NCBI GenBank assembly: GCA_038060295.1 | Contig: JBBTHR010000019.1 | Span: 1,582 to 65,581, forward strand | Length of the DNA stretch: 64,000 nt | Origin: Candidatus Eiseniibacteriota bacterium | GTDB taxonomy: Bacteria; Eisenbacteria; RBG-16-71-46; SZUA-252 | Direction of reading: 5' to 3' | Shown: one piece after another, positions 2,466 to 64,000 of the stretch | Numbering within the stretch: the first letter of the stretch is position 1 | Layout: each line of letters begins with the position of its first letter | Position numbers and translations under genes: made by a program | The notes under the pieces: model-generated | Seen by the model: the letters and a program-made list of their open reading frames with translations, nothing else | Database searches by the model: none | Told to the model about the DNA's origin: nothing

Positions 2466-3941
2466 GTGATGTCCGCCGCGACGGGCGCCGCGCATCCGCC
2501 CAGGGGGCCGATGGCCTCGCCTCCGGGGCGCGTCCTCTCCACGCTCAACGAAGACGGTTCCCGCCGCCGCATCCGGCCCCGCTTCTCCAAGGGCCGCTAT
2601 CACCTCCGTCGCCGCCTGACGGCCTACGCCCTGATGCTGATCTTCTTCCTCATCCCCTATCTGAGGATGGGGGGGAAGCCGCTCATCCTTCTCGATCTCC
2701 CTCGTCGTGAATTCACCCTCTTCGGCACGACCTTCCTGTCGACCGAGACGGTGCTCTTCATGTTCCTCTCCATCGGGCTCATCCTGCTCATTTTCCTCGC
2801 CACGGCGCTGCTGGGACGCGTCTGGTGCGGCTGGGGGTGTCCCCAGACGGTCTACATGGAGTACCTCTTCCGTCCGGTGGAGTACTGGCTGGAAGGGGGA
2901 TGGCGTGGGGCGAAGAAGCTCGATCGGAAGAAGGGGATTCACGCGAGGCGGCTGGCGAAGCAGGCGATCTACCTCGTCCTCTCCATGTTCCTGGCGCACA
3001 CGTTTCTGGCCTACTTCGTCGGCATCGAGCGCTTGGCCCAATGGGTGCAGCGCTCTCCGGTGGAGCACCCGACGTCGTTCTTGGTCATGCTCGGGACGAC
3101 GCTCCTCATCTTCGCCGACTTCGCCTGGTTCCGCGAGCAGACCTGCCTCGTCGCCTGCCCTTACGGGCGCCTGCAGTCGGTCCTGCTCGACCGCCGCTCC
3201 CTCATCATTGGGTACGACACCAAGCGGGGCGAGCCGCGCCAGAAGGGGATTCTGGAACGACCCTCCACGGCGGGGGACTGCGTGGCGTGCCAGCTCTGCG
3301 TCCTCACCTGCCCGACCGGCATCGACATTCGCGAGGGGCTGCAGATGGAGTGCATCCACTGCACCCAGTGCGCCGACGCGTGCGACTCGGTGATGCTCCG
3401 CGTCGGAAAGCCGCCCGGCCTGATCCGCTACGGCTCACGGGACGAGTTCGAAGGGCGGATGAGTTCCGGGTCCCGCCCCCGGGTCATCCTCTATCCGCTG
3501 GCGCTGGCGGTCACGATCGGGGCCTTCGTCTGGCTCCTCGGCACGCGCGCCGACGCCGAGGTGACGATCCTCCGAGGCCTGGGAGATCCCTACACGCTCC
3601 AGGCCGACGCCGCCGTGGCGAATCATATCCGCATCAAGGTGGCGAATCGCGGCAGGAGCGACCGCGCCTACCGCATCGCCATCGAGGGAGCGCCGGAGGC
3701 GACGGTGATCGCGCCGATGAACCCGCTCTCGGTTCCGGCGGGGGAGACGCGGAGCACCAGTGTCTTCGTGGTTCTGCCTCGCAAGTCGTTCGTGAAGGGA
3801 GAACATGCCGCCTCGGTCTCGCTGAGCGACGGCGATCGCTTCTCGGCGACTCTTCCATACCGGCTGCTGGGGCCGGAGAGCGACGATGACGACGACGACG
3901 ACGACGACGGGGATACGCCCGAGGGAGGAACGACGCCATGA
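2466..3941 (+). CDS. ccoG: CcoG/FixG 4Fe-4S ferredoxin-type cbb3 assembly protein with a C-terminal poly-Asp tail
   Basis: Contains the motifs CGWGCPQT, CVACQLCVLTCPTGIDIREG and ECIHCTQCADACD. The C-terminus ends with nine consecutive Asp residues. Confidence 0.85.
   Translation: MMSAATGAAHPPRGPMASPPGRVLSTLNEDGSRRRIRPRFSKGRYHLRRRLTAYALMLIFFLIPYLRMGGKPLILLDLPRREFTLFGTTFLSTETVLFMFLSIGLILLIFLATALLGRVWCGWGCPQTVYMEYLFRPVEYWLEGGWRGAKKLDRKKGIHARRLAKQAIYLVLSMFLAHTFLAYFVGIERLAQWVQRSPVEHPTSFLVMLGTTLLIFADFAWFREQTCLVACPYGRLQSVLLDRRSLIIGYDTKRGEPRQKGILERPSTAGDCVACQLCVLTCPTGIDIREGLQMECIHCTQCADACDSVMLRVGKPPGLIRYGSRDEFEGRMSSGSRPRVILYPLALAVTIGAFVWLLGTRADAEVTILRGLGDPYTLQADAAVANHIRIKVANRGRSDRAYRIAIEGAPEATVIAPMNPLSVPAGETRSTSVFVVLPRKSFVKGEHAASVSLSDGDRFSATLPYRLLGPESDDDDDDDDDGDTPEGGTTP
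3882..3908 (+). repeat. (GAC)n trinucleotide tract, nine Asp codons (GAC GAT GACx7) inside the ccoG 3' end
   Basis: Direct read: gacgatgacgacgacgacgacgacgac. Confidence 0.9.
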
Positions 3942-4414
3942 AACCAGCCGCGCTCTGGCCGGCCGCCGTCATCGGGGCCCTCGTCGTGACGGTTGCCGCG
4001 AACGTCGTTCTCCTGATGGCGGCGAACGATCCGCGACACTCGGCGGTCGAACCGAATTACTATCGGAAGGCGGTCGCCTGGGATTCCACCATGGCCCAGC
4101 AGGGACGGAACGAGGCGCTCGGCTGGAGCATCGCCGCGACGTTGGAGGCCACCGCCGAGGGAGCGATCGTGCGCGCCCAGATATCCGACCGCGCGGCGGC
4201 TCCCCTGTCGGGCGCCCGGGTCACGCTCGAGGGAATTCACAATCTCGATTCGGGGCGCCGCGTTCTCGGTGAGCTTCGGGAGACCGGGCCGGGCGCCTAC
4301 GAGGCGGTCTTGCCGCTGCGGAGGGCCGGTCTCTGGGAGCTTCGCTTCACCGTGGATCGCCAAGGAGAACAGTTCACCGCCGACCTGAGGCGGGATCTGA
4401 ACCATCGGCCATGA
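3938..4414 (+). CDS. ccoH: FixH/CcoH family protein
   Basis: An N-terminal TM helix and NDPRHSAVEPNYYRKAVAWD, typical of FixH. Its position between ccoG and ccoI supports the call. Confidence 0.7.
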   Translation: MKPAALWPAAVIGALVVTVAANVVLLMAANDPRHSAVEPNYYRKAVAWDSTMAQQGRNEALGWSIAATLEATAEGAIVRAQISDRAAAPLSGARVTLEGIHNLDSGRRVLGELRETGPGAYEAVLPLRRAGLWELRFTVDRQGEQFTADLRRDLNHRP

Positions 4415-12543: not shown

Positions 12544-13454
12544 GGCCCACCGCCTCCCGCGCCGCAATCGACCATGGCGAGGAACGCCGGCGCGCCGAGG
12601 GCGCGAACGTAGGGGCCGAATTCCGGCGGGGTGAGAACGGGACAGTCGGCGGCCAGGTGGATCTGCCAGCGCGGCGCCGCTCGCGTCCGCGCGGAGAGTT
12701 CGCCCGGTTCGAAGAGGGCCACGTCGAGGTCGCCTCTCTCGAGCGCGATCTCTTCCTCGGCCGCGTCGTCGAAAAGGCTCGCGACGATCGTGTCGGGCCA
12801 GGAGGCGGTGCGCCCGAGAGCGCCGCCGCCCGAGGCGGAGACGCCGGAGAGGCTGTCGGTGGAATCGCGCGTCAGCCGGTAGCCGAGCCGTCCCATCGGT
12901 TCCACTCGATAGGCCATGCCCAGGGGCGGCCGGAGCGTCCAGCGGTCGCAGCCCGTGCGATTCGCCGCGCGCCGTCCCGAGGGAAATCCCACGCGAATCG
13001 TGGAGGGCGAGGGAAGCGGCCTGCGCGCCGCCAGAACGCGCAGGCGGTCGAGCTTTCGCTCTCGCGCGAGCGTGCCCGAGACGAGGCGGGCCACGGCCAG
13101 CCCTCCCTCGGCGATGCTCACGATCGGCGCCGCCGCGACCTGCTTCTTGCCGGATCGAATGAGGAGCGTGTCGCCGGGCGCCACGCTGCCCGAATCGCCG
13201 AGGACGACGTAGACGTGATCGGCGCGGTGCCAGACGACGCGCGCGTCGAGCGGCTCAGGAAAACTCGGCGCGGCCGAAGCGGGAAGGGACAGAGAGACGA
13301 GAATCGCGTAAATCGCGAACGCGACCGAGATGGAGAATGAGCCGCGCGATCCGATCCGGCGCTCGATCCGGCGAGTGGACGCCAGGGGACATCGCGTGTC
13401 CAAATTGCCACGCGAACGCAAGGCATTGCCAACACTCGTCTTTGCCATGTTCAT
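12540..13454 (-). CDS. Hypothetical signal-anchored periplasmic protein upstream of ntrYX
   Basis: Start assigned at MNMAKTS (GGGAG is 7 nt upstream). The protein has a hydrophobic anchor (FSISVAFAIYAILVSLSLPASA) and no recognisable motifs. Confidence 0.4.
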   Translation of the reverse strand: MNMAKTSVGNALRSRGNLDTRCPLASTRRIERRIGSRGSFSISVAFAIYAILVSLSLPASAAPSFPEPLDARVVWHRADHVYVVLGDSGSVAPGDTLLIRSGKKQVAAAPIVSIAEGGLAVARLVSGTLARERKLDRLRVLAARRPLPSPSTIRVGFPSGRRAANRTGCDRWTLRPPLGMAYRVEPMGRLGYRLTRDSTDSLSGVSASGGGALGRTASWPDTIVASLFDDAAEEEIALERGDLDVALFEPGELSARTRAAPRWQIHLAADCPVLTPPEFGPYVRALGAPAFLAMVDCGAGGGGP

Positions 13455-13476
13455 GAGCCTGCTCCCAAAGTTTCTC

Positions 13477-13494
13477 CGTGTCAAGGTTGACACG
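13477..13494. promoter_or_regulatory. 18-bp perfect palindrome cGTGTCAA-GG-TTGACACg in an AT-rich intergenic island; candidate operator
   Basis: Direct read. It lies 23-40 bp upstream of the start of the minus-strand gene 12540-13454. Confidence 0.35.
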
Positions 13495-13507
13495 AAATGG
13501 CTCTGCC

Positions 13508-13523
13508 GTGGCAGCAGCATTTC
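13508..13523 (+). promoter_or_regulatory. Weak sigma-54-like -24/-12 element (TGGCAG-N5-TTTCA). A second near-match (GGCACG-N4-TTGAA) lies at 13558-13573.
   Basis: The match to TGGCAC-N5-TTGC is only partial and the conserved GC dinucleotide of the -12 element is absent, so this is low confidence. The ntrX-type activator is encoded adjacent. Confidence 0.15.
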
Positions 13524-13717
13524 ACGTAACTCGTTGTGAAATAATCAAATAAACGCACGGCACGGCGATTGAATAGGTGTCTGATCACCGGCCGCGCCAG
13601 AGCGGCGTTGCCGGAATCCGGAGTGCGGGAGTGAGAGTCCGCGCCGGACGACCAGAGGCCACACGCCGGCGGCATCCCTCTGGTTGTACTCCGCGGTCGC
13701 CGGCTGGGAGCAGGATC

Positions 13718-14335
13718 ATGATTCGCCAGGAGAAGAAGTCGAACGTGCTGGGCCTCACGCGTGGGGACGTCGCTGTCGCCGCCTCGTTTCTGCTGCTGCT
13801 GGTGGCGCTGGGATGCGGCAAGGAGGAGAAGCGGGTTTCTGCGTCCACCAGCGACGCGCGGGGCTTGGCCGTGGTCGCCGCTCCGGTCTCGACCCCCGCC
13901 CAGGGGGACGGCGCCTCCCGGACGACGCTCACGTCGGGCGTCGCGGAGATCCAGGGGGGCGTGAGTCACGACGAGGCGTCGAGCGAGGCGCCGGCGGCGG
14001 AAGGGGACGGCGCGCTCCCTCCGGAAGTCGTCGTGAGTGTTCCCGACTCCCTCGCCGTGCCGGGAAGCATCGTGGAGATCACCGCGGAGGGATCGGCCGA
14101 CGTGACCGCAATCACCTTGTCGGATGGTCGTGGTCAGACGCGACCCTTCGCCTATGACGCCGGGGCGAACGTCTGGCGCGCCTCCTACCGCGTGCCGCTT
14201 CGGAGCGCGACCGAACGTCTCGGGCTCTCGGCCACGGCGACGAACGGTGGAAATCGCTGGAAGCGGGTCTGGATCTTCCTGAACGTGCTGCCGAAACAGA
14301 CGACCGCGGCGGTCGATTCGAGTGGAGGGTGCTGA
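13718..14335 (+). CDS. Hypothetical lipoprotein
   Basis: Start assigned at MIRQEKK with a lipobox (LLVALGCG). The protein is rich in Ser, Ala and Thr and has no catalytic motifs. Confidence 0.45.
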   Translation: MIRQEKKSNVLGLTRGDVAVAASFLLLLVALGCGKEEKRVSASTSDARGLAVVAAPVSTPAQGDGASRTTLTSGVAEIQGGVSHDEASSEAPAAEGDGALPPEVVVSVPDSLAVPGSIVEITAEGSADVTAITLSDGRGQTRPFAYDAGANVWRASYRVPLRSATERLGLSATATNGGNRWKRVWIFLNVLPKQTTAAVDSSGGC

Positions 14336-14378
14336 GTGGCGGAGGTCTCGTCCGAAGCGTGGTCCGGAGCCCTCGGGG

Positions 14379-14807
14379 TCATGACCCCGGGGGCTCACCC
14401 CTATCCCGATTGGGGGAAATCACCTCCAGGCGGACGCGAGCCACGCCCGCCCGTAGGAATCCCAGATCGCGCGCCGCGCGCCGCGAGACGTCCACGATGC
14501 GACCTCGACGGAAGGGGCCGCGATCGGTGATCGTCACGACGACGCTTCGCCCGTTCTTGAGATTCGTCACCCGCACGCGCGTCCCGAAGGGAAGCGTGCG
14601 ATGCGCGGCGGAGAGTTCGTCCGAGTCGTAGCGCTCGCCGCTTGCGGTGGTCCGCCCGTGGAACTCGGGGCCGTAATACGAGGCGAAACCCACGATTTCC
14701 GAACCGGCGCGAGACCCGTCACCCGATCCGATCGCCGGATGAGAGCCGGCGCAACCGGTGGCGAGGAGGAGCGACGCGAGCAGGGCGGTCGGAAGCAAAG
14801 ATCGCAT
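14379..14807 (-). CDS. rlpA: RlpA-like septal ring lytic transglycosylase / DPBB-domain lipoprotein
   Basis: A lipobox (LLLATGCAG) followed by ASYYGPEFHGRTTASGERYD...AAHRTLPFGTRVRVTN. Confidence 0.75.
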   Translation of the reverse strand: MRSLLPTALLASLLLATGCAGSHPAIGSGDGSRAGSEIVGFASYYGPEFHGRTTASGERYDSDELSAAHRTLPFGTRVRVTNLKNGRSVVVTITDRGPFRRGRIVDVSRRAARDLGFLRAGVARVRLEVISPNRDRGEPPGS

Positions 14808-14928
14808 CCTCGACCCATCGGCAGAAACAGCGCGTGACTGTAGGCGGTCGAAAGCGGGAATCGATCGGATGGTCGTATTGGGCCATCTCACCCGCCATGT
14901 GGGATGCGCCGCCCCGGAGTCCGGCTCC

Positions 14929-16575
14929 CTACCGATGCACCCCCGCGGCCTCGCTCCCGGTGCGCTCCACGAATTCCACGTAGGAGCCGCCGTAGGCGAA
15001 GGGGGGGAGTCCCGGCGCGCCATCCCCGTCCCCGGGCCGGAGCTCCAGCACGCGATTGCTGAGCCCCTTCAGGAATGTGCGATCGTGGCTCACGAAGAGC
15101 ATCGTCCCCTCGAAGTTCCCGAGCGCCTCCACCAGCATCTCCTTCGTCTCGAGATCGAGATGATTCGTCGGCTCGTCGAGGATGAGGAAATTCGGCGGAT
15201 CGAAGAGCATCTGGGCCAGCACGAGTCGCGACTTCTCGCCGCCGGAGAGAACGCGGACCGGCTTCTCGTGGTCGGCGCCGGAAAAATGGAAGGCGCCGAG
15301 AAGGTTCCGAAGCACCCCCTGGCCTTCCATGGGGCAGCTCTGCTGGATCTGCTCGAAGACCGTGAGCGACGGGTCGAGTTGCTCCAGCGACTGCTGGGCG
15401 AAGTATCCCACCTTGAGGCCGGCGCCTAGTCGCACGGAGCCGTGGTCGGGATCGATCGCGCCGGCGACCAGCTTCAGCAAGGTGGTCTTGCCGGCGCCGT
15501 TTCGGCCCATGACGCACCAGCGCTCGGTCCGGCGGATCACGAAGTCAAATCCGTCGTAAAGAACCCGCGACCCGTAGGCCTTCGACACGCCCGAGAGCAT
15601 CGCGACGTCCTCTCCGGAGCGCGGCGGCTGGCGGAAGTCGAACTGCACGACCTTTCGCCGCACCGGCAGCTCGACGACATCCAGCTTCTCGAGCTTCTTC
15701 ACGCGGCTCTGCACCTGGGCGGCCTTGGCCGCGTGCGCGGCGAAGCGCTCGATGAAGCGGCGCTCCTTCGCCAGCATCGCCTGCTGGCGCGCGTAGGCCG
15801 CCTCGCGGTTCGCCTCGGCGATCGCCCGCTCGCGGACGTAGTAGTCGTAGTTCCCGGTGAAGGTGCTGAACTCGCCGCCGTCGATTTCCACGATGCGGCT
15901 CACGACGCGGTTCATGAAATCCTTGTCGTGGCACGTCATGAGCACCGCGCCGGGGTAGTCGCGAATGAACTCCTCCAGCCAGAGAATCGATTCGATGTCG
16001 AGGTGGTTCGTCGGCTCGTCCATCAGGAGGACGTCGGGCCGGCCCAGGAGCACGCGGACCATGCCGACGCGCATCTTCCAGCCGCCCGACATGGCGCCGA
16101 CGTCGGCGTCGATCTGGCGGTCATCGAAGCCGAGCCCATGGAGCACCTCGCGGGCGCGCGCCTCCAGGTCGTAGCCGCCGCCGTCCTGATAGGCCCCCTG
16201 CACCTCGCCGAAGCGCTTGAGGATTTTCTCCATCTCGCCGGCGCGCTTCGGGTCGGCCATGGCGTGCTCGAGGTCCTTCAGCTCGTGGTGAAGGTCTCCC
16301 AGCTTCCCGCTGCCCGCGATCGCCTCGTCCAGCACCGAGCGGCCCGACATCTCGCCGACGTCCTGGCGGAAGTAGCCGATGGTGGTCCGCTTGGGAATCG
16401 AGATCTCGCCCTCGTCGGGGATCTCCTCGCCGACGATCATCCGGAAGACGGTCGTCTTCCCGGTGCCGTTCGGCCCGACGAGGCCGGCCTTCTCCCCGGC
16501 GTTGAGCTGGAAGGAGGGCTCCACGAAGAGAACCTGGCGTCCGTACTGCTTGCTGATGTTGCTGAGGGAGATCAT
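14929..16575 (-). CDS. ABC-F family ATPase (tandem ABC domains, no TM domain)
   Basis: Two Walker A sites (GPNGTGKTT and GRNGAGKTTLLK), two LSGG signature motifs and a linker region. Confidence 0.85.
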   Translation of the reverse strand: MISLSNISKQYGRQVLFVEPSFQLNAGEKAGLVGPNGTGKTTVFRMIVGEEIPDEGEISIPKRTTIGYFRQDVGEMSGRSVLDEAIAGSGKLGDLHHELKDLEHAMADPKRAGEMEKILKRFGEVQGAYQDGGGYDLEARAREVLHGLGFDDRQIDADVGAMSGGWKMRVGMVRVLLGRPDVLLMDEPTNHLDIESILWLEEFIRDYPGAVLMTCHDKDFMNRVVSRIVEIDGGEFSTFTGNYDYYVRERAIAEANREAAYARQQAMLAKERRFIERFAAHAAKAAQVQSRVKKLEKLDVVELPVRRKVVQFDFRQPPRSGEDVAMLSGVSKAYGSRVLYDGFDFVIRRTERWCVMGRNGAGKTTLLKLVAGAIDPDHGSVRLGAGLKVGYFAQQSLEQLDPSLTVFEQIQQSCPMEGQGVLRNLLGAFHFSGADHEKPVRVLSGGEKSRLVLAQMLFDPPNFLILDEPTNHLDLETKEMLVEALGNFEGTMLFVSHDRTFLKGLSNRVLELRPGDGDGAPGLPPFAYGGSYVEFVERTGSEAAGVHR

Positions 16576-58609: not shown

Positions 58610-59875
58610 ATGATCGAACCCGCGGCATCGGACCTGATCTACGAGTGGAACCAAGGGAACGATCCCGGAGACCGCCCGGCCGGAGTGGTGGAGGTCGCCG
58701 ACGAGACGCTCCGAGACGGGCTCCAGTGTCCCTCCGTGGCGGATCCGTCCATTGAGCAGAAGATCCAAATGCTCCATTTCCAGGCGCGCCTCGGCGTGCA
58801 CGGGGTGGATCTCGGACTGCCCGGCGCCGGCCCGCGTGTCCAGGCTTCGGTGCTCGCCCTGGCCAGGGAGATGGTCTCCGCCAAACTGCCCATGGAGCCC
58901 TACTGCGCGGCGCGGACGCACGTCGCCGACATCGACCCGATCATCGACGTGGTGCAGAAGACCGGGCTCGCGATCCACGCGGCGACCTTCCTCGGCTCGA
59001 GCCCCATTCGCCACTACGCCGAAGGGTGGGATCTGGACCGGCTCCTGAGGACGACGGAGGAGGCGGTCGGTTATGCGGTCCGGCACGGTCTCCAGGTCAT
59101 GTTTGTGACCGAGGACACGACGCGGGCGAAGCCGGAGATGCTCCGTCAGATCTACACGGCGGCGATCCATGCCGGTGCGAATCGAATCTGTGTCGCCGAC
59201 ACGGTCGGCTACGTGACGCCGCAGGGCATCACACGGCTGATCCGGTTCATTCGCTCCGTCGTGGATGCGACGGGTGCGAAGATCCCCATCGATTTCCACG
59301 GGCACCGGGATCGTGGCCTCTGCATCGCCAACGTGCTCGCGGCCTTCGCCGCCGGAGCCGACCGGGCGCATGGGACGATCCTCGGCATCGGCGAGCGGGT
59401 GGGGAACGCGCCGCTCGATCTTCTCCTGATCAATCTGAAGCTCCTCGGATGGCTCGACCGGGATCTGACGGCGCTGCCGGAGTATTGCGACCTGGTCTCG
59501 CGCGCCTGCGGCGTGCCGATCCCGCCGAGCTACCCGGCGTTCGGTCGGGACGCGTTCCGCACCGCGACGGGTGTGCACGCGGCGGCCGTGATCAAGGCGA
59601 AGAAGAAGGGGGACGCGGCCCTGGCGGACCAAGTCTACTCGAGCATCCCGGCCAGCATGCTGGGACTCACACAGGTGATCGATGTGGGACCGATGTCGGG
59701 CGAATCGAACGTGGTCTACTGGCTGGAGCATCACGGGTACGAAGCCGACCGCCCTCTCGTGGAGCACCTCTTCCGATTGGCGAAGGAGCGGGATCGCGTC
59801 TTCGAGAGCACGGAGTTGGAGGCGGCAATCGCGAAATTCCGCGCGTCGCGGAGCGTCGCGGGGTCGGCGTCATAG
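58610..59875 (+). CDS. HMGL-like / 2-isopropylmalate-homocitrate synthase family (DRE-TIM metallolyase) protein lacking the LeuA regulatory domain
   Basis: VEVADETLRDGLQ...IDFHGHRDRGLCIANVLAAFAAGADRAHGTILGIGERVGN (the HxH metal site). Confidence 0.7.
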   Translation: MIEPAASDLIYEWNQGNDPGDRPAGVVEVADETLRDGLQCPSVADPSIEQKIQMLHFQARLGVHGVDLGLPGAGPRVQASVLALAREMVSAKLPMEPYCAARTHVADIDPIIDVVQKTGLAIHAATFLGSSPIRHYAEGWDLDRLLRTTEEAVGYAVRHGLQVMFVTEDTTRAKPEMLRQIYTAAIHAGANRICVADTVGYVTPQGITRLIRFIRSVVDATGAKIPIDFHGHRDRGLCIANVLAAFAAGADRAHGTILGIGERVGNAPLDLLLINLKLLGWLDRDLTALPEYCDLVSRACGVPIPPSYPAFGRDAFRTATGVHAAAVIKAKKKGDAALADQVYSSIPASMLGLTQVIDVGPMSGESNVVYWLEHHGYEADRPLVEHLFRLAKERDRVFESTELEAAIAKFRASRSVAGSAS

Positions 59876-59928
59876 GTCGAGAAGTGTCGCCGGATCGCGG
59901 GGGGCGAACACAACTGGAGGAACGACAG

Positions 59929-61890
59929 CTAGCGTCGTTCGGGGCGACTCGTTTCAGTTGGCCGGGTGGGGACAGGCGGGGGAAGGAAGGCCACATCGAG
60001 ATCCTGACCCGAATCAGCGGATCTTACGGTGCCTCCGTCGGGCGCCTCGGCTCCGCGCTGAACCACGAGCGCCTCCATGGCGTAGTACTCCGGCAGTCCG
60101 AGCTGATCGACCAGCCGCGCCGTTCCCTTGTTGCGCTCTTCCACGCGCTGCCAGAACTCGCGCTCGTCGACCCCGGGGAACGGCGCGCGGTCCTTCTGGC
60201 TCTGGTGCTTGAAGATGGCGCTGATCTTCAGCCGTAGTTCCTCCTCCGACATCGGTACGAGAATGTCGGCTTCGGCGATGGGCCATTCCTCCCAGGCTCC
60301 GCGATAGAGCCAGGTCTCCGGCGCCTCGCCGGAGTACCGCTCGAGCGCCAGTTCGATCGCCTCCTTGCACATGCGGTGCGTGCCATGCGGATCGGAGAGG
60401 TCTCCGGCGACGAGGATGATCTCCGGTCGATGCTCCTCGAGCAGGGAGAGGATGATCTCGACGTCCCGATCTCCGACCGGATCCTTCCGGACGCTCCCCG
60501 TCTGGTAGAAGGGGAGGTTCAGAAACCGGGACTGGTCCGGCCGCAGGCGCAGCGTCTCGATGGCGGATACCGCCTCGACCTCGCGGAGCCGGCGCTTGAG
60601 CATCTGGACCGTTTCGGAGTCCACCTGCCCCGGCTGCTTACGGTTTAGGAATTGCTCGACCTCCTCCAGTAGCGACCGCAGGCGGTCGTTCCCGTATTCG
60701 AAATCGCTCGCGGTTCGGCGTACGAATTCGAGGTAGCGGCGGACCTCGTGATCGAAGACGGCGATGTTGCCCGACGTCATGTACGCCACGACGATCTCGT
60801 TCTCGTTCTGGCGGAGCTTGTGGAGCGTTCCTCCAGCGGAGATGACGTCGTCGTCAGGGTGGGGGGAGAAGACAACGATGCGCCGCCCCCGGGGGAGCTT
60901 GCTGCGTCCGCGGATCTTGGTGCCGAGCGCGTTGAAGACGACCCCGTTCAGCGCGGCCGAGGAGCCGTGGCGGGCGAGGAGCGCGCCCAGATGGTGTTCG
61001 CGATAATCGCCGTCGGCCAGCTTGAGCACGGACTTCCCGGTGACTTGGGAGAGCCAGACGACCGCCTCGATCGCGAGGAGCGGGGTCCACTCGATTTCGC
61101 GGCGCAGCCAGGGCGTCTTCAGGCGGGTCAGATCCGCCGCGGCCGCAGGGTCGAGATAGACAGTCGCATCCGGGTGCTGTTGGAGATACGTCGCGGCCAC
61201 GGAGCGGTCGATGTCGCCCTCGACCGAGCGCCTCACGATCGCGGCCTTGTGCTCGCCCGTCGCGATGAGCGCGACCTCTCTGGCCTCGAGGATTGTCGCG
61301 ACGCCCATCGTGATCGCCTCGTTCGGAACGTTTTCGGTTCCGAAGAAGTCCGACGCGGCGACGCGGCGTGTGATCGTGTCGAGGACGACGAGGCGCGTGC
61401 GCGAACCGGGGCTCGATCCGGGCTCGTTGAACCCGATGTGTCCCGTCTGCCCGATTCCCAGAATCTGGAAGTCGATGCCGCCGGCATCCGCGATCGCCCG
61501 TTCGTAGTCGCGACAGTGCTCATTGACCGCGTCTCGGGGAAGGTCTCCGCGCGGAATGTGCACGTTTCGCGGGTCGATGTTGACGTGGTCGAAGAAATTC
61601 TCCCACATGAAGCGGTGGTAGCTATGAACGTTGTCCGGCGACATGGGGTAGTACTCGTCGAGATTGAACGTCTTGACCCGGGACCAATCGAGACCTTCCT
61701 CGCGGTGCATCCGGATCAGTTCTCGGTAGACACCGATCGGCGTCGAGCCGGTGGCGAGCCCGAGCACGGGCGTTCGTCCGCTCGCGTGCCGGTCACGGAT
61801 GATCTCGGAAACGCGCCGCGCGATGAGCTTCGCGATGAGGTCGTACGACTCCGTCGCGAGGACGGGGATTCGTTCGGAGTTCTCGTCCAT
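59929..61890 (-). CDS. nagB: Glucosamine-6-phosphate deaminase (NagB) fused to a PIG-L/LmbE-family deacetylase
   Basis: The N-terminus has LGLATGSTP...NLDEYY...ILGIGQTGHIGFNEPGS. The C-terminus has VVFSPHPDDDVISAGGTL and HPDH...DH motifs. Confidence 0.75.
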   Translation of the reverse strand: MDENSERIPVLATESYDLIAKLIARRVSEIIRDRHASGRTPVLGLATGSTPIGVYRELIRMHREEGLDWSRVKTFNLDEYYPMSPDNVHSYHRFMWENFFDHVNIDPRNVHIPRGDLPRDAVNEHCRDYERAIADAGGIDFQILGIGQTGHIGFNEPGSSPGSRTRLVVLDTITRRVAASDFFGTENVPNEAITMGVATILEAREVALIATGEHKAAIVRRSVEGDIDRSVAATYLQQHPDATVYLDPAAAADLTRLKTPWLRREIEWTPLLAIEAVVWLSQVTGKSVLKLADGDYREHHLGALLARHGSSAALNGVVFNALGTKIRGRSKLPRGRRIVVFSPHPDDDVISAGGTLHKLRQNENEIVVAYMTSGNIAVFDHEVRRYLEFVRRTASDFEYGNDRLRSLLEEVEQFLNRKQPGQVDSETVQMLKRRLREVEAVSAIETLRLRPDQSRFLNLPFYQTGSVRKDPVGDRDVEIILSLLEEHRPEIILVAGDLSDPHGTHRMCKEAIELALERYSGEAPETWLYRGAWEEWPIAEADILVPMSEEELRLKISAIFKHQSQKDRAPFPGVDEREFWQRVEERNKGTARLVDQLGLPEYYAMEALVVQRGAEAPDGGTVRSADSGQDLDVAFLPPPVPTRPTETSRPERR

Positions 61891-62037
61891 GCTTGATCTT
61901 ATCGGCCTCCGCGACGCGGACATTGATGATGGCCCGCCGGCCGCCGCCGCCGGGCAATTGCCGATCTTGCGCCCAGCGTCAACCGCGCTAGACTCAACCA
62001 CTTGCGGGGGTGGTCGGCCCTCGGGGCGAAGCCGCGG

Positions 62038-62067
62038 CAAGGAGGTAACGTCTCATGAGCCTCCTTG
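62038..62067 (+). promoter_or_regulatory. 8-bp perfect hairpin CAAGGAGG / CCTCCTTG with a 14-nt loop containing an ATG, inside the 517-bp leader of the KamA-like gene
   Basis: Direct read (stem 62038-62045 and 62060-62067). The GGAGG is paired with the CCTCC. Confidence 0.25.
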
Positions 62068-62407
62068 GGCTTGGTGCATCGAGTGTCCAACCATGGCCAC
62101 CGATCGCCCCCGCCCCGCACGGTTCGGTCTCCCACTCGTCGTGGACGCCTGAAGTCGCGCCGCCACCATCCCGGCCATCCACGCGGCGCCGCGCCGATCC
62201 CCCAGACTTGCCCCAAGATCACCGCACTCGACGGCGGATCCACCCTTCCCCCTGCTACCTCCTGCTACTTTTGTGCCAATTGCCAGCGTCCAACCAGGGT
62301 GGGAACCTCACCGCACGGTGGGCGCTGTCCCGCCGATGGCGGTTCCGAGCGTCGATGGCCCGAGCACGGATAAGCTCCTCCCTGGCATGGGTTCTTGGAG
62401 AATTGAC

Positions 62408-64000
62408 ATGTCGAACACCAAAGAGGTCAATCCCGTGAGTTCCTCGGTAGAACCGATCTCCTCCACGGTCACTCCGGCGGACATCGAAGCGATGATGACC
62501 CGTTTCGGTTACTCGCCCGAGACGCGGCAGATCATCGCGACGGAGAACCTGCTGCCGGCCGGGCTGCTCAGTCGGTTGCACGCGACGTATCCGCAGCACT
62601 CCGGGCTTCTCGAGCGGGGGAAGACCCTGTTCAGCGATTCCGATCACTACTCCGAGCTGGAGGGGTTCCGGCGTGTCGCCGAGATCCTGGAGCAGCACGG
62701 AATCCACCTCGGCGACATGACCGAGCGGGAGTTGTTCGTCGAAGTGTACCGCTTCAAGGTGTCGCGTCACGCGCTCAACAGTATCAACTGGAAGAACTAC
62801 CAGCGCGATTCGATGTTCCAGCTCATGTTCCCGCAGCCGGGAATGATGAAGGAGGAACTGCTCGACGCGTACACCGCCACGGCATCACCCGAAGAGCGGA
62901 CACGCATCGCCAGCGAGTACGTTCACAAGACCAACCCCCACGATGGCCATCAACTCCTGAACAAGCCGTGGATCGAACAGGACGACGGCGGGATCGACGT
63001 CGTCGAAGGCAGTCAGCACAAGTACCCGCAGTGCCAGCTCGTCTTCGACCGGACGACGCAGGAGTGTTTCGCCTTTTGCACCTACTGCTTCCGTCACGCG
63101 CAGGTCCGCGGTGACGAGGACATGTTCGTGCAGGAGGACGTCGCGCAGATCCACGACTACCTTCGCGGCCACCCTGAAGTCACCGATCTGCTCATCACCG
63201 GCGGGGACGCGGGATACATGCCCGTCGAACGACTGCGGCAGTACGTCATGCCGATCGTCGAAGACCGCCGCTTGCTGCAGGTGCGCACGGTCCGCCTCGG
63301 CTCACGCATGCTGACGTATCAGCCCGAGAGGGTCCTCACGCGGCAGTACGAGAAGATGCTGGCCCTGTTCGACGTCGTGCACGACAACGGGGTTCAATTG
63401 TCGTGGATGGCGCATTTCTCCACGCCACGGGAGCTGTTGAATCCCAGCACGATCGCCGCCATCCGCAGGCTCCAGCGACACGGCGTCGTGGTGCGCAGCC
63501 AAAGCCCCATCATGAACCACATCAGCCTGTTCACCGATGACCGGGGCCACGTGGACGTCCAGCGTTCGGCGCAGAACTGGATCGACCTGGCCAACGTGCT
63601 TGGGACGCTGCTGGTGCGCTTCCATTCGATGTACTGCGCCCGCGCGACCGGCGAGCATCACTATTTCACCGCGTCGCTGGCCGACATCGAGAAGATCGCC
63701 AACCTGGTCTACCGTTCGCTCTCATCGCTCAACCGGCCGTCGAGGTACATCACGATGACCACGTCCGCCGGCAAGGTCTCCATCCTCGGGACAGCCGAAG
63801 TCGGCGGGCAGACGGCCTTCGCGCTGAAGTTCAACGAGAGCCGGAACATGGCATGGATGGATCGCGTATTCCTCGCCAAGTACGACAGCCAGACGAACCG
63901 CGTCGACTTCCTGACGCCCTTCGACACGTCCGAGTTCTTCTTCGAGAAGGAGCTGCACGAGATCGAGCAGAAGCTGATCGACGTGCACCATCGGCGCCGG
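62408..64000 (+). CDS. KamA-family radical-SAM/PLP aminomutase (lysine 2,3-aminomutase-like) with an N-terminal extension of about 75 aa. It is 3'-partial (no stop in the window) and absent from the supplied ORF track.
   Basis: Translated by hand; GGAG lies 8 nt before the ATG. The C-x3-C-x2-C motif (CFAFCTYCFRH) follows HKYPQCQLVFDRT. LITGGDAGYMP, VRLGSRMLTYQPERV and the PLP-Lys region TMTTSAGK match KamA landmarks. At least 531 codons are open. Confidence 0.8.
   Translation, partial: MSNTKEVNPVSSSVEPISSTVTPADIEAMMTRFGYSPETRQIIATENLLPAGLLSRLHATYPQHSGLLERGKTLFSDSDHYSELEGFRRVAEILEQHGIHLGDMTERELFVEVYRFKVSRHALNSINWKNYQRDSMFQLMFPQPGMMKEELLDAYTATASPEERTRIASEYVHKTNPHDGHQLLNKPWIEQDDGGIDVVEGSQHKYPQCQLVFDRTTQECFAFCTYCFRHAQVRGDEDMFVQEDVAQIHDYLRGHPEVTDLLITGGDAGYMPVERLRQYVMPIVEDRRLLQVRTVRLGSRMLTYQPERVLTRQYEKMLALFDVVHDNGVQLSWMAHFSTPRELLNPSTIAAIRRLQRHGVVVRSQSPIMNHISLFTDDRGHVDVQRSAQNWIDLANVLGTLLVRFHSMYCARATGEHHYFTASLADIEKIANLVYRSLSSLNRPSRYITMTTSAGKVSILGTAEVGGQTAFALKFNESRNMAWMDRVFLAKYDSQTNRVDFLTPFDTSEFFFEKELHEIEQKLIDVHHRRR

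Follow-up and report, generated by a model that had tools for sequence, protein, structure and literature searches.

Several known systems of bacterial gene control offer a comparison for the locus described here. In class II promoters of the CRP/FNR type an inverted repeat overlaps the −35 element; the FNR consensus is TTGAT-N4-ATCAA. Sigma-54 promoters follow the −24/−12 consensus TGGCAC-N5-TTGC, with the two critical dinucleotides spaced as GG-N10-GC. At the RNA level there are switches that sequester a ribosome-binding site (RBS), such as RNA thermometers and translational riboswitch platforms, and a lysine riboswitch (the L-box, RF00168) reportedly lies upstream of lysine-utilisation kamA operons in some Firmicutes. 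Our locus resembles this last system in that a KamA-family gene is preceded by a long non-coding stretch. It differs in that Rfam at gathering threshold matches nothing in the entire window (the whole 64-kb stretch of DNA that was analysed), RF00168 included, and nothing upstream of the KamA-like genes at 16 related loci; moreover, the encoded enzyme scores far below the cut-offs for lysine 2,3-aminomutase.

The stretch in question comprises the 517 bp (61891–62407) that separate a NagB/LmbE-like gene (minus strand, start at 61890) from a divergently oriented KamA-like gene (plus strand, start at 62408). We lean towards reading it as an ordinary divergent intergenic region, in which the module proximal to the KamA-like gene would be a promoter and operator with a short leader. 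The features of the locus are as follows.

59929–61890, minus strand: NagB/LmbE-fusion gene, glucosamine-6-phosphate deaminase-like, 653 aa (NCBIfam NF002557, 864.7 bits)
61891–61927, minus strand: stretch directly upstream of the NagB-like ATG, including GGCCGATAAGAT, in which a TAnnnT-type box ends 5 nt before the ATG
61950–62251, no strand assigned: spacer of ~300 bp in which no conservation was detected, C-rich on the plus strand, holding the hairpin below and most of the 127-codon ORF
62038–62067, plus strand: GGAGG/CCTCC hairpin flagged earlier, with arms CAAGGAGG (62038–62045) and CCTCCTTG (62060–62067) and a 14-nt loop
62055–62438, plus strand: 127-codon ORF, not a gene (GC at codon positions 1/2/3 = 0.62/0.66/0.66)
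62263–62280, plus strand: core of block 1, the invariant 18-mer TGCTACTTTTGTGCCAAT, identical in the window, L001, L083, L084/L094 and L110
62280–62308, plus strand: promoter-shaped segment, with a −35-like TTGCCA (62280–62285), a 17-nt spacer and an extended −10-like TGG GAACCT (62300–62308)
62309–62349, plus strand: variable GC-rich middle, 25–70 nt in relatives, with local hairpins such as CCGCC-GAU-GGCGG (alignments A2, A4 and A6)
62350–62407, plus strand: block 2, CCCGAGCACGGATAAGCT, with TAAGCT at 62371–62376, conserved in all seven close loci including L081
62408–64000, plus strand: KamA-like radical-SAM gene of a 537-aa family, its last 6 codons removed by the end of the window

According to its Pfam matches (Glucosamine_iso and PIG-L), the minus-strand protein is a glucosamine-6-phosphate-deaminase-like domain fused to a PIG-L/LmbE deacetylase-like domain. 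Its start at 61890 is confirmed by an identical 653-aa protein (P0121) in a public collection, and the ortholog at locus L147 (87% identity, on a 3.1-Mb contig) opens at the same ATG, with MDENPERIPV. Beyond this gene, an HMGL-like gene ends at 59875. The KamA-like ATG is at 62408; homologs are 66–93% identical, mostly 508–583 aa long with query coverage of 92–100%, and the alignments of the closest ones begin at the first residue of the query. KamA-family models in NCBIfam give 65–69 bits on the gene, as against cut-offs of 199–650 (KamA subfamily; lysine, arginine and glutamate 2,3-aminomutases). We do not adopt an identification as lysine 2,3-aminomutase, the scores being below every NCBIfam equivalog and subfamily cut-off; judged by its sequence the downstream gene is KamA-like. 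In relatives the gene leads an operon that continues with CoA-transferase A and B, a class-III aminotransferase and a thiolase.

The gap between the two genes is non-coding. Its GC content is equal over the three codon positions in all six frames (0.65–0.70); for the flanking genes the values are 0.84–0.87 at the third position and 0.39–0.46 at the second. A codon-periodicity scan places the longest flat run of the window at 61831–62520. A preliminary description of this DNA had likewise called the gap non-coding, and its further claim that this is the longest non-coding stretch of the window is plausible given the flat run. It had also pointed to the ORF at 62055–62438 and doubted that it was a protein gene. 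The ORF exists, with its final 31 nt overlapping the KamA-like gene out of frame, and the doubt was justified: codon-position GC is flat, no Pfam or NCBIfam family matches, no homolog appears at E ≤ 0.01 among 5.8 × 10^9 proteins, and tblastn in 81 related KamA-like loci finds no match. For the ORFs of the gap in general the same searches (Pfam, NCBIfam, tblastn against the 81 loci and the 5.8-billion-protein collection) were all negative. By eye we saw no conserved upstream ORF before the KamA-like gene, and the sole in-frame upstream ATG, which would extend the N-terminus of the KamA-like protein, is not conserved in L084.

The preliminary description went on to propose that a hairpin at 62038–62067 hides a strong RBS and thereby controls a leader peptide or attenuator, the 127-codon ORF, governing the aminomutase-like gene. 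Its structural premises largely hold, in that the 8-bp stem is perfect, the ATG at 62055 lies in the 14-nt loop, a GGAGG precedes that ATG (its end is 9 nt away, rather than the 7 nt given), and the ORF does overlap the KamA-like start. The hairpin is nevertheless within chance. Its local fold has z = −1.29, with 17 of 200 shuffles folding equally well; a perfect 8-bp hairpin with a 3–20 nt loop appears in 17.5% of dinucleotide shuffles of the 517 bp; across the 64-kb window 62 such hairpins occur (~0.5 per 517 nt), and GGAGG is found 169 times; and the entire gap folded as RNA gives z = +0.06. We also found no conservation of the hairpin or leader at orthologous loci, the outcome that the preliminary description had itself named as refuting its proposal: the segment is absent from L081, the relative with 93% KamA-like identity, and cannot be aligned in L001, L083, L084, L110, L138 or L147. 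Since the hairpin precedes a non-gene, is statistically ordinary and lies in a stretch conserved with the loci of neither flanking gene, it is unsupported as an RBS-sequestering element.

The leader-peptide part of the proposal fares similarly. We rejected a leader-peptide attenuator on the grounds that no terminator-like site was found in 61700–62600 and that neither the upstream ATG, compared by eye with L084, nor the 127-codon ORF is conserved; to our knowledge, 127 codons also far exceeds the length of known leader peptides. A known riboswitch is not in evidence either. The Rfam scan that had been recommended as a check gave no relevant match, the best at E ≤ 10 in 61700–62600 being CcsR1 with 21 bits versus a 65-bit cut-off, inside a coding region. 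Moreover, the conserved promoter-like module described below sits downstream of both hairpin and ORF. We therefore regard the model of a hairpin-controlled leader peptide as extremely improbable and close to refuted. Both the hairpin and the 127-codon ORF are products of chance in a C-rich, 67% GC spacer, and we assign them no function; in GC-rich spacer DNA of this sort chance alone is expected to yield an 8-bp GGAGG/CCTCC hairpin and a long ORF, and neither warrants annotation as a gene, riboswitch or attenuator. The broader expectation that the gap is regulatory non-coding DNA was better founded, as the KamA-like gene is indeed preceded by a conserved element, situated ~200 bp downstream of the hairpin.

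That element is the last ~150 bp of the gap (62252–62407), which are conserved and accompany the KamA-like gene in six lineages whose upstream genes are unrelated (the window, L084/L091/L094, L001, L110, L083 and L138; 80–84% KamA identity). The upstream genes of these lineages are a NagB-like gene, DUF1684, a HAD hydrolase, a methyltransferase and an unassigned 165-aa ORF beside an acyltransferase gene. In all of them the module ends at the ATG. The gap as a whole had been described as a 517-nt leader, a description that does not suit a divergent gap whose counterparts in the other module lineages measure 206–268 bp and in the closest relative only 60 bp. This closest relative, L081, has 93% identity in the KamA-like and 96% in the HMGL-like protein; here the HMGL-like stop is joined to the KamA-like gene by the 60 bp, which contain block 2, and the NagB-like gene, the spacer and block 1 are lacking (all sequence up to ~62345 is missing). 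The module is absent from L082, L002, L003/L139 and L140–L146, several of which carry canonical TATACT-type −10 boxes instead.

Within the module, the 18-mer of block 1 is identical at 18 of 18 positions in five lineages, versus an identity of 0.50–0.65 at four-fold degenerate sites between these lineages, which indicates strong constraint on block 1. Together with the preceding base (62262, C here and T in four relatives) it forms a 7-4-7 inverted repeat, TTGsTAC-TTTy-GTGCCAA, and an extra CTGCTAC copy lies 10 bp upstream of it (62252–62258). The sixth lineage, L138, has the variant TGGTACTTTCGTGCCAAT, in which two substitutions raise the symmetry of the repeat to 6/7. Downstream of the 18-mer, every one of the six lineages has GTGGGA after a spacer of exactly 18 nt whose sequence varies; across lineages the second box reads (G)TGGGA[A/T/G][C/G]CT, or TGGGAAsCT. 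The middle of the module differs between lineages in both length and sequence. Block 2 has the consensus CCCGAG..ACGGAyAAsCT, a tract CTCyTyCC, a short hairpin, GGGAGAA and the ATG. In the window these correspond to the pyrimidine tract CTCCTCCC at 62375–62382, the small hairpin CCC-UGGCAU-GGG at 62380–62391, and the RBS GGAGAA at 62397–62402, which ends 5 nt before the ATG (its GGAG core, 62397–62400, ends 7 nt before). Block 2 is kept in L081, where block 1 is missing.

Beyond these lineages the module was not recovered. A scan of metagenome sequence for the 18-mer gave 53 matches. Only three of these are genuine, namely L110 and the two loci matching L084 (L091 and L094); the remaining 50 are chance matches, most of them in low-GC DNA and a few of them resembling coding sequence. 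This result implies that the motif does not mark other genes in that collection. We considered and rejected the 18-mer as the end of a repeat or mobile element: it is single-copy in the window, and in GC-rich metagenome DNA it occurs only before KamA-like genes. Profiles of blocks 1 and 2 run with nhmmer over all related loci collected found no new block 1, and block 2 matched L081; its 3′ half can be made out by eye in L002, and nhmmer placed L002 (E = 0.036) and L140 (E = 3.3) below significance. A covariance model of the module, run over 97 sources (the window and 96 related loci), recovered no additional copy. The element is known only from one uncultured clade, for which Candidatus Eisenbacteria MAGs (L001, L060) are the nearest named records; we know of no cultured representatives of the phylum.

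Where might transcription begin? At L083 the upstream gene has a strong terminator-like hairpin whose end is 10 nt short of block 1, and in no lineage did we find conserved sequence upstream of the 18-mer that could act as a promoter; these two observations together indicate that the promoter must lie inside the module. A promoter-shaped arrangement is present there. The boxes TTGCCA and TGG-GAACCT are separated by a spacer of fixed length and variable sequence, and the window has a single match to TTG-N17-TGnGAnnCT (0.3 expected), at a position conserved in six lineages. The proposed −10 element GAACCT fits the consensus only at A2 and T6, with the upstream TG in addition. Another promoter form that we tried and rejected is the Bacteroidetes-type −7 box (TAnnTTTG): TACTTTTG in the 18-mer is its only instance in 64 kb, versus 1.5 expected, and L138 has TACTTTCG.

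A different promoter reading takes the 18-mer as a minus-strand sigma-54 promoter, ATTGGCAC-AAAAG-TAGCA, which would direct transcription away from the KamA-like gene (in the window, towards the NagB-like gene). The likeness is considerable, since the reverse complement of the 18-mer has TGGCAC-N5-TAGC, fitting the consensus at 10 of 11 positions with exactly the correct GG-N10-GC spacing, and the window does have a minus-strand gene downstream of it. However, such a promoter would be misoriented for the gene with which the 18-mer is found. The motif travels with the KamA-like and not with the NagB-like gene, and the NagB-like ortholog locus L147 is without it. In L083, L110, L084/L094, L138 and L001 the upstream gene is on the plus strand, leaving no downstream target in these other lineages, where the promoter would give antisense RNA only, and nothing is conserved on that side of the 18-mer. 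L138, furthermore, turns the critical −12 GC into CC. The resemblance is accounted for if TTGGCAC is one half-site of the inverted repeat, and we consider a sigma-54 promoter very unlikely.

We return to the promoter–operator reading. By its conservation, 62252–62407 would be a clade-specific control module of the KamA-like operon, most likely read as DNA. The module shows its conservation pattern and fixed spacing with neither coding potential nor membership of a known RNA family, and a DNA signal is suggested by three of its properties: the spacer is fixed in length and free in sequence, the changes in L138 increase dyad symmetry, and the blocks show invariance and not covariation. All six lineages have a conserved inverted repeat whose distance from the promoter-like boxes is fixed, as expected of a promoter with an operator. 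We propose the 18-mer as a binding site for a dimeric regulator. In the mechanism that we envisage, a dimeric transcription factor would bind the 18-bp inverted-repeat operator, which overlaps the putative promoter (TTGCCA, 17 nt, TGG-GAACCT), so that block 1 would receive both the regulator and RNA polymerase. From the position of the predicted transcription start, a transcript of roughly 95–100 nt would follow ahead of the gene, carrying at its 3′ end the conserved pyrimidine tract and the GGAGAA RBS. The regulator may respond to the substrate of the pathway.

The same module can be set beside CRP/FNR-type class II promoters. Like these, it has a short invariant 7-4-7 repeat overlapping the −35-like box, and its fixed-length, free-sequence spacer leads to a second conserved box; it lies directly after the terminator of the upstream gene and before a catabolic-looking operon, and it is conserved without covariation. 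It differs in that the half-site TTGsyAC and the geometry TTG-N12-CAA appear to match neither the FNR nor the CRP consensus, and in its non-canonical −10. Two observations weigh against a promoter with an operator, namely that a strict sigma-70 consensus scan of 61700–62600 returned 0 sites and that no regulator gene adjoins the KamA-like operon in any locus checked.

What the analysis yields as a by-product is a bounded, strongly constrained cis-element before the KamA-like operon, with an invariant 18-bp inverted repeat and a partner box at fixed spacing. This offers a handle on the regulator of the operon, on its inducer (and hence its substrate) and on the form of promoters in the lineage.

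A possible objection is that the module acts as RNA. It could be a structured leader, either a new riboswitch-like element or a protein-binding translational switch, in which the purine block GGGUGGGAA (62297–62305) and the RBS GGAGAA (62397–62402) compete for the pyrimidine tract CUCCUCCC (62375–62382); this competition would turn translation of the KamA-like gene on or off according to a metabolite of the pathway. RBS-sequestering switches offer a partial parallel, since the tract, 15–20 nt upstream, can pair with the KamA-like RBS and a second purine block in the module could compete for it. The three conserved purine and pyrimidine blocks are indeed mutually complementary. RNAalifold on alignment A6 pairs UGGGAA with yUyCCUG, with 86% of cells paired. 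For the A4 structure, 84% of cells are paired versus 79% in shuffles, with 9 doubly-changed pairs versus 5.0, and the covariation score of 0.286 versus 0.204 was reached by 1 of 500 shuffles; the controls for the pair counts were shuffled and slid, and the structures derive from the same few related sequences that were tested. These six-sequence pairing values, slightly above controls, also count against a promoter with an operator. The persistence of block 2 in L081 without block 1 would suit an RNA role, as would the long untranslated regions before the gene in several lineages (the TATACT box of L082 is ~205 nt upstream).

Other results speak against a switch. Two RNAalifold runs on the same sequences differ in consensus structure: the first gave −13.0 kcal/mol over 211 columns with an unfavourable covariation term (+1.31), and on a second alignment the structure was different, UGGGAA pairing with the pyrimidine tract. 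The predicted hairpin between tract and RBS is weak (−3.08 kcal/mol), its covariation term likewise unfavourable (+0.86). Here the module departs from known RBS-sequestering switches, its pairing being weak (−3 kcal/mol for the consensus) and without supporting covariation, and its RBS not consistently occluded; the hairpin flagged earlier involves another GGAGG, which serves no gene. Of the seven individual leaders, five have folds no more stable than those of shuffles (z from −2.15 to +0.10 over the seven), and accessibility of the RBS is not consistently low (0.33–0.67). The conserved blocks do not covary but are invariant, the fixed-length spacer is free in sequence, inclusion of block 1 in the transcript would need a promoter in upstream DNA that lacks conservation, and the covariance model found nothing further. 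A long-range pairing between UGCCA of the 18-mer and UGGCA of block 2 was rejected as well, the block 2 side varying (UGACA, UGCCA, GGUCA, GGAAA) without compensation, as judged by eye in A2.

We consider a structured leader RNA of either kind unlikely; were the module such a switch, it would represent a new regulatory RNA class of narrow distribution. A specific form, which we hold to be quite improbable, is that the 150–185-nt module is a new clade-restricted riboswitch-like leader, the invariant GCUACUUUUGUGCCAAU and GGGUGGGAA forming a ligand- or protein-binding core. Pairing of the pyrimidine tract with the RBS would depend on this core, and the element would then control an uncharacterised operon (aminomutase, CoA-transferase, aminotransferase and thiolase) that is widespread in uncultured bacteria.

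The rest of the gap shows little conservation. The ~40 nt upstream of the NagB-like ATG (TCAAyGTCC...GGCCGATAmrA) can be aligned with L147 and are the only distal part alignable with an ortholog; in blastn the gene alignment extends 9 nt upstream, and a further 28-nt match follows (82% identity, E = 0.02). At L147 the neighbour of the NagB-like gene is a Ser/Thr kinase gene and not a KamA-like gene. We suggest that the ~40 bp adjoining the NagB/LmbE-like gene would serve that gene, with 61891–61927 as its putative promoter. The spacer at 61950–62251 has no significant blastn or tblastn match in the 81 KamA-like loci or in the NagB-like ortholog locus. GC skew over 62100–62299 is −0.33. Two short direct repeats ~200 nt apart raised the idea that the spacer is a decayed tandem copy of the proximal module; we rejected it, the local alignment scoring 20 versus a shuffle mean of 18.5, with 83 of 300 shuffles scoring as well.

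A minor observation concerns block 2. Its GGAyAAsCT resembles, by eye, the GGACTATACT −10 box of L002 and L140; MAFFT prefers another register, and we mention homology between the two as a possibility only.

Comparison with L081, the closest relative of the window (93% identity in the KamA-like gene), revealed an additional 2.47 kb in the window (59876-62345, against 2889-2948 in L081), lying between the stop codon of the HMGL-like gene and block 2, the conserved segment that precedes the KamA-like ATG. This extra segment holds:

59876-62345, the NagB-like gene, the spacer, block 1 (the conserved 18-mer inverted repeat and its partner box) and the variable middle

Because more distant lineages share block 1 with the window, its absence from L081 is most likely due to deletion there; such a deletion would have brought the KamA-like gene under the control of read-through from its HMGL-like neighbor. 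The short sequence GTCGA is found at both window edges of the extra segment (about 59877 and 62352).

Only the window (62252-62268) and L084 (131-147), its nearest module-bearing relative, have a direct repeat CTGCTAC-CTC-CTGCTAC, an extension of the 18-mer's left half-site; the repeat's start-to-start distance of 10 bp is one helical turn, and the extra CTGCTAC copy could be an additional half-site.

More distant relatives without block 1 show a recurring near-consensus -10 box, (G)GACTATACT or GAGCTATACT, which lies 55-205 nt before the ATG of the KamA-like gene:

L002, ~3941-3950, -10-like box
L140, ~2942-2951, -10-like box
L082, ~3790-3800, -10-like box
L142, ~71-80, -10-like box

By eye, GGATAAGCT of the window (62368-62376) could be a degenerate homolog of this box; MAFFT alignment did not support the register that pairs the two.

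On the other side of the gap, the divergent NagB-like gene has a promoter-like element close to its start codon:

within 61891-61927, minus strand, TAnnnT-type box TAAGAT, ending only 5 nt before the NagB-like ATG

The gene also has a GGAGG 15 nt upstream, in the same minus-strand region (61891-61927). The L147 ortholog retains GGCCGATAC and has GGAG at a similarly long distance, with ~37 extra nt intervening. The NagB-like transcript may on this showing be leaderless or have a very short leader.

The entire gap between the two genes (61891-62407) is 38% C on the plus strand, and GC skew reaches -0.33 at 62100-62299; this strong strand asymmetry accounts for the Pro/Arg-rich ORFs on the plus strand and the G-runs on the minus strand.

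The KamA-like gene (62408-64000) is a member of a highly conserved ~537-aa family whose representatives occur in MAGs labeled Eisenbacteria, Actinobacteria, Planctomycetota, Verrucomicrobia, Sumerlaeota, Bacteroidales and Desulfuromonadales, and also in cultured Photobacterium. It scores far below all curated 2,3-aminomutase cut-offs. Downstream regions of six loci (L001, L082, L083, L141, L142, L145) give the operon order KamA-like gene, CoA-transferase A and B, class-III aminotransferase, thiolase, a gene set that suggests a pathway from amino acid to beta-amino acid to beta-keto(acyl-CoA) and then thiolysis; an acyl-CoA beta-transaminase has precedent (PMC3149608). Within the KamA-like coding sequence, plus-strand positions 62439-62514 match the Rfam model of CcsR1, an sRNA that carries a CCUCCUCCC motif, at 21.1 bits (E = 0.015), below the 65.3-bit cut-off. 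This match is almost certainly due to chance and driven by a CUCCUCC string.

Elsewhere in the window, 1.7 kb (13336-15015) has weak codon periodicity and nevertheless contains plausible genes, among them:

14379-15023, minus strand, RlpA-like lipoprotein ORF

Gene calling by composition is unreliable at 13336-15015.
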